Below are positions 25,338-27,673 of a stretch of DNA of 64,000 nucleotides, piece by piece (position 1 is the stretch's first letter; every line of letters starts with the position of its first letter). The notes under the pieces were generated by a model. It was given only the letters and a program-made list of their open reading frames with translations, did not search any database and was not told the DNA's origin. Made by a program: the position numbers and the translations under genes. This DNA comes from Escherichia phage vB_EcoP_ShWW44. The DNA is taken from sequence record PQ900156.1; one strand, given 5' to 3'.

Positions 25338-25508
25338 ATGAACAAATTTACTATTCACTGGCTCAATGGAAAGGTTAGTTCTTTCATGGGTGAAGAACCC
25401 GTTGAAGGAAAGAAAGTATTTCACATTGAATCGGAAGGATGCAAAATCTTAGTACCGTATGCTTGGTATAAAGAAGGTGAAGTAGAAGCATTAAAAAAGA
25501 GTAGTTAA
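25338..25508 (+). CDS. small hypothetical protein (about 56 aa)
   Basis: Track ORF 25242..25508 starts with GTG; first ATG at 25338; weak RBS. Confidence 0.25.
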   Translation: MNKFTIHWLNGKVSSFMGEEPVEGKKVFHIESEGCKILVPYAWYKEGEVEALKKSS

Positions 25509-25907
25509 TATCGTGAAGGGTTCTGTTAGAATCCTTTGAGATAGGAACTCCTATCATAACCTTTCTTAACTTAATCCTTGCCGTATGGCACTGACGCTAG
25601 GGTTTATGCCCATCCGTCAGGTAGACTATTTTAAGAATGGGTTATCACAGAAAATGTAAAGCAACATTCGGGTTAATCAATGGCCTCTCTCTATAGGGGC
25701 CATTTCTGAATCTTAGGCTATATCCCAAAGGTTAGTATCTTTGGGATAAGGCTTCAGATCCCTTATAAACTAACGCTCATGTTGAGCATAACACTAACCC
25801 CTACTGGCGGGTAATTCGATACGCTAGTCCTACAGCATCGAATTGTTAGGTCTTACATGCAACATAGGGTATAAAGGGAGGATTCGTCCCCTCCCTCCTA
25901 TTATAAT

Positions 25908-25977
25908 GGTCGGGGTAGCACGTAGGCATGTGCAGAAGGTCGCTACTTCTCTCGCTGGTTCGAATCCAGCCCCTGAC
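25908..25977 (+). tRNA. probable tRNA (isotype unresolved; anticodon loop read as GTCGCTA)
   Basis: 7-bp acceptor stem GTCGGGG/CCCTGAC, D-stem GCAC/GTGC with GG in loop, perfect stem AGAAG/CTTCT, T-arm GCTGG-TTCGAAT-CCAGC; TATAAT element just upstream; variable loop only 3 nt. Confidence 0.45.
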
Positions 25978-26433
25978 CTACTGACATCCTATCAATGAGT
26001 ACATTAGGCTAACGTGCGGAGGTTTACACTGTAGCCGGTGTAGGTGGAGAAGACGGCAGGGTAGCTACCTGTGCTTAGTGTACTCTTTGATAGTTTTCGT
26101 AAGCGATTATGCGGTTTTTTAGAAATGAACCAATAACATAAATGCAAACGATGATGTTGTTCTGATGGCGGCGTAATAGCCTGTAAGTCAGCAAGGTCTT
26201 CCTATTCCTTGTAAATAAATTCGGCGCAGTGGCCCGCTGTAATTAATAATGGGCACACAACAGGTAAGAGCATTGGGTAATGTCAGCCTTGGTTCGAAGT
26301 CGAAAGACATGCGGTAATACCCAGCCAAAGTTCCAGTGCTCTTTCCGTTGTGGAAATGCAAGCACAACAAGTCCAGACGATATCTGAGTGACTTTAAAAA
26401 CAGATGGAGCCAGGTGGAATCCCTGGCAATCTA

Positions 26434-26499
26434 TTCCGGTGTAGGTACTAGTGTCGTGCACGGCATGAGTGTTCTGGTTCGAGTCCAGACGCCGGAACC
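26434..26499 (+). ncRNA. tRNA-like element: acceptor stem + T-arm + encoded CCA, no D or anticodon arm found
   Basis: 5' TCCGGTG pairs 3' CGCCGGA (one G-U); T-arm TCTGG-TTCGAGT-CCAGA; discriminator A then CCA; only 31 nt between acceptor and T-stem. Confidence 0.35.
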
Positions 26500-26597
26500 A
26501 ATTACCAGTTGCACGAGATGGCTTGGCATGTTCAAGTTTGGACTAAGTGTGACACCGCTAGATTGGAGGGCTGCTGCGGTAAGCTATAGACTCCAAC

Positions 26598-26625
26598 CGG
26601 GGGTTCGAATCCCTCACTGGTAACC
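26598..26625 (+). ncRNA. tRNA-like 3' module (T-arm + acceptor 3' strand + CCA)
   Basis: GGGGG-TTCGAAT-CCCTC, then ACTGGTA-A-CCA; only exact 5' partner TACCAGT is at 26502-26508, about 90 nt upstream. Confidence 0.3.
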
Positions 26626-26713
26626 AATTCAAAGTAGCATTGCACTAATCCATCCCGGAGTTCAAAGACCAAACATGGAGCAGTGCTACTTTGAATTAGA
26701 AGAATTAAGGTGG

Positions 26714-26752
26714 GTCTGGTGAAGTAGATAGGGTTCGATTCCCTCCGGTAGA
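26714..26752 (+). ncRNA. tRNA-like minihelix (acceptor-like stem + T-arm)
   Basis: TCTGGTG ... TAGGG-TTCGATT-CCCTC ... CGGTAGA; acceptor arms resemble those of element 26434-26499. Confidence 0.25.
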
Positions 26753-26794
26753 GTAATCTACTAGCGTGCTTGGTGCATGAATAAGACTTAATAC

Positions 26795-26822
26795 TGGTGG
26801 TTCGATTCCATCCCCCACTACC
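26795..26822 (+). ncRNA. tRNA-like 3' module (T-arm + acceptor 3' strand + CCA)
   Basis: GGTGG-TTCGATT-CCATC, then CCCCACT-A-CCA; no complementary 5' strand found within 80 nt. Confidence 0.25.
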
Positions 26823-27351
26823 AATTTGAGGTGTAACAGTTAAATCCAGTTGCCGGAAGTGCTATTCTAGATACGCTGCCAATGTGTGAACGGTAAGGCT
26901 GTACAGGACTCGGACTCCCACCTCAAACCAAAGTCGCCAGGTACTTATGGCAAACGGGTAGTAACGAACTAGTCATTCGTCAAACGCCCAACCTATTACG
27001 AGTCAGCAAGAACGCCTTCACTTAAACTTAAACAATATGAAAGCTTAACGCAGATAATATGTAGGGGTATGTAAGGATTGCGAAGAAGGAGCCAGTTAAA
27101 GCCTGGCATGACTCACCTATTAATAGAGAACATAGTCCTGATTGCATTGCACTCTAAAGACAATGCCGGTGAGACAGTCCGGCACTCTAATTATTGTAAA
27201 CATACCCACTGACGAGTGGGTATGAGTATGAGCAGACTATAATGCTCAAGTACAGTTATCTATTATCGGACTATCAATCCTGTTTGCTGGTACAAGCACC
27301 GGTGGTAATAGTTAACTGGCCTAGTCTCGTTAGCTGCGTTAAAGCTACTGA

Positions 27352-27376
27352 GTCCCTCTTCGGAGGAACTTTTTTA
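27352..27376 (+). terminator. intrinsic terminator with UUCG tetraloop closing the non-coding locus
   Basis: CCTC-ttcg-GAGG core with flanking pairs, followed by TTTTTTATTT. Confidence 0.5.
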
Positions 27377-27398
27377 TTTGAAAGTAGGAGAAATACTA

Positions 27399-27673
27399 TG
27401 GCTAAATATCGTAAAAAACCTGTTGAGATTGAAGCTTTTCAATGGGACGGTAGTCTTAATCTGAACAAAGAACCAACTTGGATAGTAGATGCTCTTCATA
27501 ATGGGGTAGTCTGGTTCTCTGGGAAGGATAATAAATTATGTATCAGAACTCTGGAGGGTATCTTAACTGCTTCCCCCAATGACTATATTATCCAAGGTAT
27601 ACATGGGGAGCTATATCCGTGTAAACCAGATATATTCCTGGAAACCTATATCAAATCAACAACCGTAAGCTGA
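27399..27673 (+). CDS. hypothetical protein (91 aa)
   Basis: Start set to ATG with strong RBS AGTAGGAGAAA (track ORF starts 27242). Confidence 0.6.

Follow-up and report, generated by a model that had tools for sequence, protein, structure and literature searches.

Phage-borne forms of transfer-messenger RNA (tmRNA) have been described only as full forms in Bxz1-like mycobacteriophages and Bacillus phage G, and as a form consisting of the tRNA-like domain (TLD) only in phage DS6A (PMC4131195, PMC11915505). The pipeline of the tmRNA database demands a CCA tail, rejects forms that lack it and would therefore discard elements such as the one described here (PMC11915505). Among the small RNAs (sRNAs) of prophages, STnc100 and PasD are known, and AgvB and AsxR have been listed as prophage-associated (10.64898/2026.05.13.724894). 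In Escherichia phage vB_EcoP_ShWW44 (PQ900156.1), of which a stretch of 64,000 nucleotides was analysed (the window), a locus on the + strand at 25509-27398 carries a tmRNA-derived RNA of about 170 nt, here called the tag element (26092-26261). The sequence comparisons establish this element as a conserved, covarying, tmRNA-type RNA that is devoid of a TLD and combines a coding-type tag with an antisense-like 5' domain.

The initial annotation had suggested, from the hairpins of the locus, one or more structured non-coding RNAs. This suggestion is borne out by compensatory changes in several RNA modules and by the conservation of modules across unrelated phage families, whereas the earlier reading did not include the long-range closing stems of the locus, the tag element or a module, termed K, around 27164-27184.

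A tmRNA-derived RNA with a tag frame

The tag element comprises, on the + strand, a 5' domain, a linker, a resume codon, a tag frame, a helix equivalent to helix 5 and a pseudoknot. Its message part (26132-26179) consists of an A-rich 12-nt linker (26132-26143), the resume codon GCA at 26144, a frame at 26144-26173 and the stop codons UAA UAG at 26174-26179, and reads AUAAAU GCA AAC GAU GAU GUU GUU CUG AUG GCG GCG UAA UAG, encoding ANDDVVLMAA. The motif AUAAAU|GCA is recognised by ARAGORN as its "resume consensus", and the linker before the resume codon is near-invariant in the family. As in tmRNA, the resume codon is followed by a short tag with a hydrophobic C-terminus, which aligns with the E. 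coli tag region. Rfam, run in E-value mode, gave partial matches to tmRNA_permuted and beta_tmRNA over 26073-26225; the element stays below the gathering thresholds of tmRNA_permuted (31 bits against 47), beta_tmRNA (16.7 against 84) and tmRNA (12.4 against 47).

Across the family, the tag frame was found in 27 nucleotide versions that encode 15 peptides, all of exactly 10 codons followed by UAA, UAG or UGA. The peptides fit A-N-[DE]...[LM]x[AV]A, all beginning with A-N-D/E and ending in A. ANDDVVLMAA itself has six different codings, and the remaining two frames carry stops at variable positions. In Ackermannviridae contigs the frame GCU AAU GAU... encodes ANDSEVLMAA, and Erwinia phage Aioli has ANDSEMRVAA. 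The constraint to 10 codons, together with the synonymous changes, gives the frame the signature of a translated-looking tag.

The 3' domain (26162-26261, + strand) contains helix 5 (26162-26191), with the stop codons in its loop, a pseudoknot and a hairpin at 26232-26254 that carries the conserved loop GU(G/A)AUUAAUAA. The pseudoknot is formed by the stem 26192-26196/26207-26211 and by pairing of the loop CCUA (26201-26204) with UCGG (26221-26224), with one mismatch in this phage. In an alignment of 38 sequences with a hand-drawn structure (A1), 92.1% of the cells were paired, compared with 33-50% when the structure was slid; 13 pairs had changed on both sides, and none of 500 shuffles was as good. 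Covariation was seen in the outer and inner stems of helix 5, in both pseudoknot stems and in the last hairpin, and thus supports a helix 5 with a stop codon in its loop followed by a pseudoknot in the position of pseudoknot 2 (PK2) of tmRNA. A covariance model of the family (R1) scored 184.7 bits (E 1.5e-47) on the element in the window and 127-185 bits in 15 phage or prophage loci, and only 12-33 bits on bona fide tmRNAs.

For the TLD (G3:U70 acceptor, T-arm, CCA), ARAGORN reported no tmRNA in the window or in the 7+34 family loci; as a control, it found 26 tmRNAs in other loci from the same scan. Many family loci contained no T-arm at all in a T-arm motif scan. A hidden TLD was also sought by allowing introns and very low thresholds in ARAGORN; the calls were inconsistent, and this candidate was dropped. 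Pseudoknot 1, PK3, PK4 and the ring-closing helix 2 were likewise not found, the element having only 52 nt upstream of the resume codon, with a self-fold of -3.6 kcal/mol. Downstream of the pseudoknot lies one hairpin, followed by unrelated cassettes. The layout of a two-piece tmRNA, with an upstream acceptor piece and a coding piece starting with GGGG...GGUUUCGAC, was not found: a promoter about 13 nt away (in siphophages) or a terminator (in P1 and Erwinia prophages) stands upstream of the element, and real permuted tmRNAs look different. Homology to T4 rnaD was considered and rejected, as there were scattered 7-mers only and no covariance-model match.

The tag element was detected in 571 of 50,697 phage records, in none of which it is annotated, and is kept in at least six phage groups. 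It lies within the tRNA cluster of Felix O1/Moogle-like phages and occurs also in Vi1-like phages. The copies in 47-kb siphophages are preceded by a promoter of their own, TTGACA-17-TAGATT, and have tRNA genes downstream. P1-like plasmids carry the element in the interval from dmt to tRNA-Asn, with 589 such places in E. coli plasmids, and lambdoid prophages have it in the stretch that separates Q from the holin gene. N4, G7C and pSb-1 are without it. Among the GTDB species representatives, where the scan yielded 7 loci, the element was confined to Enterobacterales; one of these 7 matched a coding region by chance, and another was on a P1-like contig that had been binned with Bacillota. Literature searches on tmRNA-like elements of enterobacterial phages found none. 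The tag element is apparently an undescribed tmRNA derivative that is widespread in enterobacterial phages.

Two further observations were made in these scans. In P1-type phage-plasmids (L131, 2000-3130 of E. coli pM121-2; L143), a tag ANDDLMMVAA occurs directly after the terminator downstream of dmt; downstream of the element come long-stem cassettes, then tRNA-Asn and tRNA-Thr, and also a T-arm cassette and one that is STnc100-like, and of all these the tRNAs alone are annotated. In addition, the 14-mer ATAAATGCAAACGA in IMG/VR loci (L012-L121) also retrieved 24 permuted and 2 standard tmRNA genes, as called by ARAGORN, from viral contigs of environmental metagenomes, with tags such as ANDERFLMAA and ANDNFASQDFALAA; they represent either two-piece tmRNAs carried by phages or host flanks.

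Complementarity of the 5' domain to the host tmRNA

When R1 was applied to E. coli K-12 ssrA, the part comprising the tag and helix 5 aligned with the sense strand, whereas the 5' domain aligned with the antisense strand. The 5' domain (26092-26131, + strand; AGUUUUCGU-AA-GCGAUUAUGCGGUUUUUUAGAAAUGAACC) is antisense-like to E. coli tmRNA nt 56-105: the phage pattern AGUUUUCGU..GCGA(C/U)U(U/A)U GCGG.UUUUUA.. is the reverse complement of tmRNA ...UAAAAAGCCGCAAAAAAUAGUCGCAAACGACGAAAACU (nt about 56-105), a tmRNA stretch that starts with the 3' half of pseudoknot 1 and continues across the linker and the resume codon to include codons 1-5. RNAduplex gave -37.2 kcal/mol for 26092-26131 with tmRNA nt 56-106, with 35 of the 40 nt paired, compared with -21.8 +/- 2.2 for dinucleotide shuffles of the 5' domain, none of which (0/150) was as good. 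The values were -18.0 against the downstream part of the element itself and -16 to -23 against five non-enterobacterial tmRNAs. Because GC-richer windows reach similar duplex energies, duplex energy was discarded as the sole statistic, and a colinear wobble-aware score of complementarity was adopted. On this score, lambdoid and P1 variants reach 44-50, above every control (maximum 38-39).

The complementarity, extended beyond chance, is kept in the family. One-sided, wobble-compatible substitutions are seen, in which GUGGCU, GUGACU or GCGGCU replaces GCGACU and GCUG replaces GCGG, and different lineages keep the complementarity in different registers (GCGACUUU-GCGG, GCGAUUAU-GCGG, GCGUCUAUUUU and GCGAUUGUUUUU, all against host AAAAAAUAGUCGC). 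The distance from the end of the 5' domain to the resume codon is 12 nt, and that from pseudoknot 1 to the resume codon in E. coli is 11 nt. An intramolecular helix GUUUU/GAAAC, closing a vestigial hairpin, had been considered for this region and was superseded, as it showed no changes on both sides and the self-fold is weak.

The mechanism that we consider most likely for the tag element is one of masking and tag-offering. The 5' domain would anneal to the single-stranded linker and the tag start of the host tmRNA, invading pseudoknot 1. The duplex would mask the host resume codon and place the phage tag frame 12 nt downstream of the duplex, so that ribosomes rescued by the host Ala-tmRNA/SmpB would continue on the tag encoded by the phage. 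For the locus as a whole, the best explanation, which we hold to be probable, is a + strand array of cassettes that ends at a terminator and includes a tmRNA-derived element annealing to the host tmRNA and offering a phage tag. A more far-reaching proposal, possible rather than probable, is that a "tag-swap" RNA of about 170 nt in hundreds of enterobacterial phages pairs with the host tmRNA and borrows its alanine-charged TLD and SmpB, so that stalled ribosomes resume on the phage tag and not on ANDENYALAA. Its carriers would be N4-like, Vi1-like and Felix O1-like phages, several siphophage groups, P1 and lambdoid prophages, and the assembly would, on the same tentative footing, be a chimeric host-phage two-piece tmRNA assembled in trans.

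Pairing of the element with the host tmRNA, if true, would make it the first antisense regulator or hijacker of trans-translation. Such pairing would explain how a tag template can work without a tRNA domain of its own, and would open a direct way to study why certain phages, such as lambda-immP22 hybrids and phage Mu, depend on tmRNA.

The complementarity to tmRNA nt 56-105 and the absence of a TLD would equally suit a plain antisense inhibitor or RNase III guide directed against the host tmRNA, which blocks or destroys trans-translation and in which the tag frame is an untranslated leftover; a TLD-only tmRNA, a form shown to inhibit tmRNA, has been reported in phage DS6A. We consider this alternative unlikely. 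A leftover frame should decay, yet the 27 versions keep 10 codons, the A-N-D/E start, a hydrophobic ...A end and the in-frame stop, with synonymous changes; moreover, helix 5 and the pseudoknot covary and the linker before the resume codon hardly varies. If the antisense part alone were functional, the element would represent a new class of anti-host RNA, present in about 1% of sequenced phages.

Several points weigh against the explanation by pairing and tag-offering within a cassette array. In a sliding control, GC-richer 40-nt windows reached duplex energies of -38 to -42. The colinear score of the 5' domain in this window was 34, a value reached by 17 of 5000 shuffles (~0.3%) and by 48 of 25,584 genome windows (~0.2%), so that the antisense statistics here are moderate (p about 0.003); the antisense signal is strong in the longer lambdoid and P1 variants and not in that of this window. 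Pairing with E. coli tmRNA is weak for the Felix O1-type and L044-type variants. The tag frame would be tethered by the duplex only, without ring closure, and an inverted duplication of a tmRNA gene could have left the complementarity behind as a relic. As for the array, several modules are invariant among relatives, so their structures are unsupported by variation, and the hairpin at 25710-25759 (hairpin 1) is near-invariant in 9 Gamaleyaviruses and so offers no variation from which to read covariation. Folding z-scores of sliding 120-nt windows do not differ between the locus and the rest of the window (Mann-Whitney p = 0.40). Finally, none of the hits in a scan limited to sigma-70 promoters stands out as an array promoter.

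The surrounding array of RNA cassettes

The source phage belongs to the G7C/Gamaleyavirus group of N4-like podophages. The locus follows an open reading frame (ORF) whose stop codon is at 25508; it is flanked by the gp45-gp47.2 block on one side and, on the other, by small ORFs and then the opposite-strand gene for a 3601-aa virion RNA polymerase. At the equivalent position, between gp47 and gp48, phage N4 has a 1.5-kb gap without annotation. The region 25500-27400 is 97.5% identical to Escherichia phage St11Ph5 and, piecewise, 87-94% identical to ECBP1, Bp4 and others. In comparison with eleven N4-like phages, the locus is mosaic, its modules being present, absent or in another order; in KP8, for example, the tag element is followed by module E and then by module D. 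Single modules match other phage families at 80-98% identity, 26363-26430 has matches in Klebsiella phages and 9NA-like phages, and N4 has counterparts of 26832-26920 and 26370-26503 with 96-99% identity. The 1.9 kb that separate the gp47.2-like ORF from the following one would be a head-to-tail array of about a dozen RNA cassettes, swapped one by one between unrelated enterobacterial phages.

A long-stem cassette at 26256-26352 (+ strand; folding z-score (z) -4.3 for 26256-26358) has the closing stem CACAACAGGUAAG-AGCAUUG...CAGUGCU-CUUUCCGUUGUG around a 64-nt insert, and the same closing stems surround dozens of different inserts in other phage loci. The 98% identity of 26252-26353 to a segment of unrelated ~40-kb siphophages (Salmonella phage seszw, MZ375309 etc.) implies that this one cassette was transferred recently. 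Diverged forms of the recurrent cassette occur at 25991-26091 and 26627-26696, both on the + strand. The former, module B, has a diverged stem of the AGCAUUG...CAGUGCU class (folding free energy (dG) -38.6, z -3.1), and its 3' strand, GUGUACUCUUUGAU, corresponds to GUGCUCUUUCCGAU in alignments with other loci. The latter is a 17-bp long-stem cassette with the same inner AGCAUUG/CAGUGCU pairs (dG -28.4; z -6.1 for 26627-26700, with 0/200 shuffles equally stable). In the IMG/VR contigs L024 and L093, one insert (UCCCUUAUGGGGCUUGGCUUAAAUGCA...) lies inside different closing stems, ACAGGUAAGAGCAUU... and AACAUUCUAAAGGGUA..., respectively; the stems therefore behave like exchangeable RNA helices and not like fixed sequence sites. 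The long closing stems and the tRNA-like ends of cassettes suggest excision from a common precursor, which would be cut by RNase P and by double-strand or single-strand endonucleases.

Module A (25908-25979, + strand) is an aberrant cloverleaf tRNA-like RNA, called "Ala-CGC" by ARAGORN as its sole tRNA in the window. Its anticodon loop contains G32 and U37, its variable loop is 3 nt long, and CCA is not encoded. The module is under the Rfam gathering score for tRNA; tRNA-Sec matches it best, with 30 bits (gathering 47), and its z is -3.25. In Ackermannviridae contigs (L005, L180, L205), an aberrant tRNA-like RNA (acceptor GGCGAGG/CCUCGCC, T-arm, AACA end) that is not called by ARAGORN lies about 210 nt upstream of the tag, the relative position that module A has here.

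Module D (26435-26500, + strand), together with the hairpins that precede it (26370-26434), has 95.6% identity in the gp47-gp48 gap of N4, again without annotation. It shows a 7-bp acceptor UCCGGUG/CGCCGGA, one hairpin with a 4-nt loop, a T-arm, discriminator A and CCA. In comparison with Klebsiella phage KP8, both the T-stem (UCUGG/CCAGA to GUUGG/CCAAC) and the hairpin (GUGUCG/CGGCAU to GCGUUG/CAAACG) have changed in a compensatory manner. Module E (26503-26626, + strand), a 124-nt tRNA-like RNA starting 2 nt past the CCA of module D, has the acceptor UACCAGU/ACUGGUA, a T-arm, A and CCA; compensatory changes in relatives affect the acceptor (to UAUCAGU/ACUGAUA) and the T-stem (GGGGG/CCCUC to GGAGG/CCUUC). 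Both modules thus share with tRNA a 7-bp acceptor, a 5-bp T-stem with a UUCGANU loop, a discriminator and CCA, whereas a tRNA proper (7-nt anticodon loop, Rfam tRNA score of at least 29 bits) was not obtained at the gathering threshold. Because of the compensatory changes in the acceptor and T stems, modules D and E are selected tRNA mimics, and because they lack a normal anticodon arm, they are not tRNAs. A likeness between module E and the 3' region of tmRNA from E. coli was dropped, as the presumed 10-nt match is shorter in the K-12 sequence (...GACUGACUAAG...) and Rfam matched the T-arm only.

Module F (26709-26826, + strand) has two T-arm motifs and an ACCA end, and a homologue of it (26724-26814) lies between tRNA-Met and tRNA-Arg in the T4-like phage VR5. 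Module G (26825-26930, + strand) has the closing stem UUUGAGGUG/CACCUCAAA followed by CCA, with 98.9% identity in N4. The thermodynamic z-scores of modules F and G are not significant. Cassettes of the form GUGGUGAAU...CACCAC beside the tag element in related loci gave sub-threshold STnc100 matches. A reading of the long-stem and T-arm cassettes as YrlA (Y RNA-like) RNAs was unsupported, since the lone YrlA match overlapped true tRNAs.

These modules raise the possibility that one of the phage tRNA-like modules (A, D, E or a T-arm cassette) is the acceptor piece of a genuine two-piece tmRNA, to which the tag element contributes the coding piece. Such an assignment would fit the 7-bp acceptor, T-arm, discriminator A, CCA and compensatory changes of D and E, the T-arm cassettes that adjoin the tag element in some prophage loci, and the aberrant tRNA-like RNA about 200 nt upstream of the element both here and in Ackermannviridae. 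It is nevertheless highly improbable, because many element loci have no T-arm, or canonical tRNA-Arg or tRNA-Met only, and N4 carries module D without the tag element. Furthermore, G3:U70 was read in none of the modules, and no sequence complementary to the element, its conserved loops included, was found elsewhere in the window.

Module K (27122-27191, + strand; about 70 nt) is common to N4, KP8, G7C, Jgk1 and others. It consists of an outer stem (27122-27128/27185-27191), a near-invariant 35-nt interior and an inner hairpin (27164-27184). The inner stem is UGCCGG/CCGGCA here, UAUUGG/CCAAUA in N4, CACUGG/CCAGUG in G7C and UACUGG/CCAGUA in KP8, and the outer stem is AUAGAG/CUCUA here and UAGCAGU/GCUGCUA elsewhere. 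In an alignment of 12 N4-like phages from at least three genera (A3), 93.6% of the module K cells were paired, compared with 19-53% when slid, 10 of 13 pairs had changed on both sides, and 0/500 shuffles were as good. The column pair 18/75 is UG in 6 of the 12 sequences, and such + strand G-U pairs within the covariation therefore point to RNA rather than DNA. The inner hairpin, TGCCGG/CCGGCA, had been noticed before, at 27156-27174, as a hairpin flanked by the direct repeat GCACTCTAA; the hairpin exists, and the repeat is a coincidence of this lineage, its second copy being formed by the 3' strands of the two stems of module K.

The array ends at an intrinsic terminator (27350-27376, + strand), with a stem at 27350-27370, a UUCG loop and a U6 tract up to 27376. 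The UUCG-tetraloop terminator reported at 27352-27376 is thereby confirmed, with a conserved core CCTC-TTCG-GAGG at 27355-27366 followed by T6. The stem has one G>A mismatch here and is perfect in relatives (GTCCCTC-TTCG-GAGGGAC), and terminators are annotated at the equivalent place in G7C and PhAPEC5. A GC-rich hairpin with a U tract is thus conserved at the end of the unit, although a simple terminator scan did not list it. The last cassette (27229-27376, + strand) comprises a hairpin at 27229-27248, a Y-shaped fold at 27249-27322 and the terminator, and 27196-27345 has a z of -3.5. A perfect TATAAT (27239-27244) lies in the loop of the first hairpin, about 110 nt upstream of the terminator, with no -35 box found; if it were a promoter, a terminator-ended sRNA of about 125 nt would result. 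An STnc100 match at 27247-27381 scored 15.6 bits against a gathering threshold of 47 and cannot be counted as STnc100.

The hairpins named in the initial annotation all exist, with coordinates displaced by 1-5 nt in most cases. For hairpin 1, ATCCCAAAG/CTTTGGGAT had been placed at 25717-25742 and is found at 25722-25747; the perfect stem has 10 bp (25721-25748) and is the core of a 21-bp imperfect hairpin (25710-25759, + strand; dG -25.8; z -5.2 for 25703-25762, with 0/200 shuffles equally stable), which is almost invariant among the Gamaleyaviruses. It lies at the 5' edge of the array, and its length makes it a plausible candidate for a double-strand processing site of the RNase III type.

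For hairpin 2, AATTCGAT/ATCGAATT, placed earlier at 25810-25841, is present at 25813-25844 (+ strand) with an 8-bp stem and a 16-nt loop, and is perfect in this phage only: 5 of the 8 pairs are kept in St11Ph5 and 7 of 8 in G7C, and the region has large indels in ECBP1, nithesis and PhAPEC5. Hairpin 2 is thus probably fortuitous and not a conserved element.

For hairpin 3 (25875-25907, + strand), the 7-bp stem AGGGAGG/CCUCCCU had been given as 25872-25893, just before a TATAAT element and a tRNA. The stem is real (25875-25896) and is followed by UAUUAUAAU; TATAAT (25902-25907) directly abuts the start of the tRNA-like module A at 25908 and was not scored as a sigma-70 promoter. The stem is kept in 8 relatives, an A>G change in nithesis leaving a G-U pair, and UAUUAURA after it is retained even in relatives without the tRNA-like module.

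For hairpin 4, ATACCCACT/AGTGGGTAT lies at 27202-27223, not at 27203-27224, within a perfect 10-bp stem CAUACCCACU-GACG-AGUGGGUAUG (27201-27224, + strand). It is identical in St11Ph5 only; ECBP1, KP8 and Jgk1 have a hairpin CAUACC.../...GGUGUAUG at this position, and nithesis, G7C and N4 have none. As read from these sequences, it is a variable hairpin at a conserved position. Conservation in relatives thus holds for hairpins 1 and 3, for 27164-27184 as part of module K and for the terminator, but not for hairpin 2, and for hairpin 4 in St11Ph5 alone.

N4 virion RNA polymerase uses hairpin promoters, and the hairpins might accordingly act as DNA, for example as promoters of an N4-type RNA polymerase or as replication or packaging signals, which would suit the conserved TATTATRA after hairpin 3. 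We regard this as extremely improbable. The early promoters of N4 have 5-7-bp stems with 3-nt loops and conserved flanks and lie at the genome end, whereas the hairpin loops here have 4, 8, 9 and 16 nt, and the covariation of module K retains G-U pairs on the + strand.

The density of stable structure, which had been taken as a sign of structured RNAs, exceeds that of dinucleotide shuffles: the locus has 3 perfect hairpins of at least 8 bp, compared with 0.42 +/- 0.69, and 4 of 300 shuffles reach 3. It is not unusual for this genome, since, of 125 windows of this size in the 64 kb, 16 (13%) contain at least 3 such hairpins and the folding z-scores do not differ. The density argument is therefore weak, and perfect hairpins are only weakly above chance. 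The flagged hairpins are real, yet individually ordinary, and the real signal in the locus is comparative.

This ordinary density, together with the poor conservation of hairpin 2, the free gain and loss of modules and a canonical tRNA-Ile found at the same place in relatives and not in this phage, is what would be expected of a decaying tRNA cluster, in which pseudo-tRNAs, junk and chance hairpins have no function beyond an occasional intact tRNA. Such decay is improbable, because compensatory substitutions maintain the stems of D, E, K and the tag element, the modules shared by N4 and this phage are 95-99% conserved despite differing flanks, and at least six phage groups keep the tag element. 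Phage tRNA regions are usually annotated for canonical tRNAs alone, and this locus shows the gaps to contain RNA cassettes that are conserved and exchanged horizontally, which is so even in such classic cases as N4, P1 and lambdoid prophages.

Upstream of the array, an sRNA-like stretch (25617-25712, + strand) ends in a terminator-like hairpin at 25681-25702 (UGGCCUCU/AGGGGCCA; dG -12.5) that is conserved in Gamaleyaviruses. It matched STnc100 (RF02076) with 32 bits against a gathering threshold of 47 and with a 106-nt internal deletion relative to the model. The 120 nt directly 3' of the upstream ORF stop (25501-25620) are far more stable than shuffles (dG -38.3, z -5.2) and may be a further cassette or a 3'-untranslated structure. 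A scan of the whole window with Rfam found no family at gathering thresholds, tRNA included, and sub-threshold matches only in E-value mode.

A protein-coding reading of the locus was dropped: those of its ORFs that were tested had zero Pfam matches and a single PHROG match, to a 40-aa family without assigned function. This family, PHROG 37481, matches a TTG-started ORF at 25843-25995, which overlaps hairpin 3 and the tRNA-like module; it was probably built from spurious ORF calls over the non-coding locus in relatives, such as 8 "hypothetical proteins" of phage nithesis. Homing endonuclease genes (HNH or GIY-YIG) adjoin several such arrays (G7C gp47.1, KFSST1, pYD38-A, Aioli, T4 segB).

Comparison with known RNA systems

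Among classical systems, the closest analogue of the array is given by the T4 species 1 and 2 RNAs (rnaC, rnaD), which are small stable RNAs without an assigned function, co-oriented with phage tRNA genes. T4 rnaC ends in a T-arm and an acceptor-like stem, as do modules D, E and F, whereas neither T4 RNA has sequence homology to the locus or to the tag element. The terminator resembles rho-independent terminators in its GC-rich stem, UUCG tetraloop and U6 (27350-27376), and differs in one broken stem pair (G>A).

The lambdoid late-leader sRNAs, STnc100/PasD and the anti-sRNAs AgvB and AsxR, occupy the same niche in lambdoid prophages as the tag element, from Q to the lysis genes. AgvB and AsxR act by pairing with host sRNAs. 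The target proposed here is tmRNA and not an Hfq sRNA, and the element carries a coding-type tag frame; in contrast to STnc100 itself, the match in the window (25617-25712) is sub-threshold.

With one-piece and permuted tmRNA (SsrA), the tag element shares the A-rich linker ...AUAAAU followed by GCA, the 10-codon tag of the ANDxxxLxAA type, the stop codons in the loop of helix 5 and the H-type pseudoknot directly after it. Unlike tmRNA, it is only about 170 nt long, has no acceptor stem, T-arm, CCA or pseudoknot 1, carries a 5' end that is antisense-like to the host tmRNA, stays below the Rfam gathering score (31 against 47 bits) and lies inside phage tRNA/sRNA arrays. Like the TLD-only tmRNA of DS6A, which is thought to interfere with host trans-translation, it is a phage-borne half-molecule. 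Whereas the DS6A form is the tRNA-like half without a tag, the element described here is the tag half without the tRNA-like half, in phages whose hosts are Enterobacterales; the tmRNA-derived element, missed by ARAGORN and Rfam, is thus the mirror image of the TLD-only phage tmRNA.

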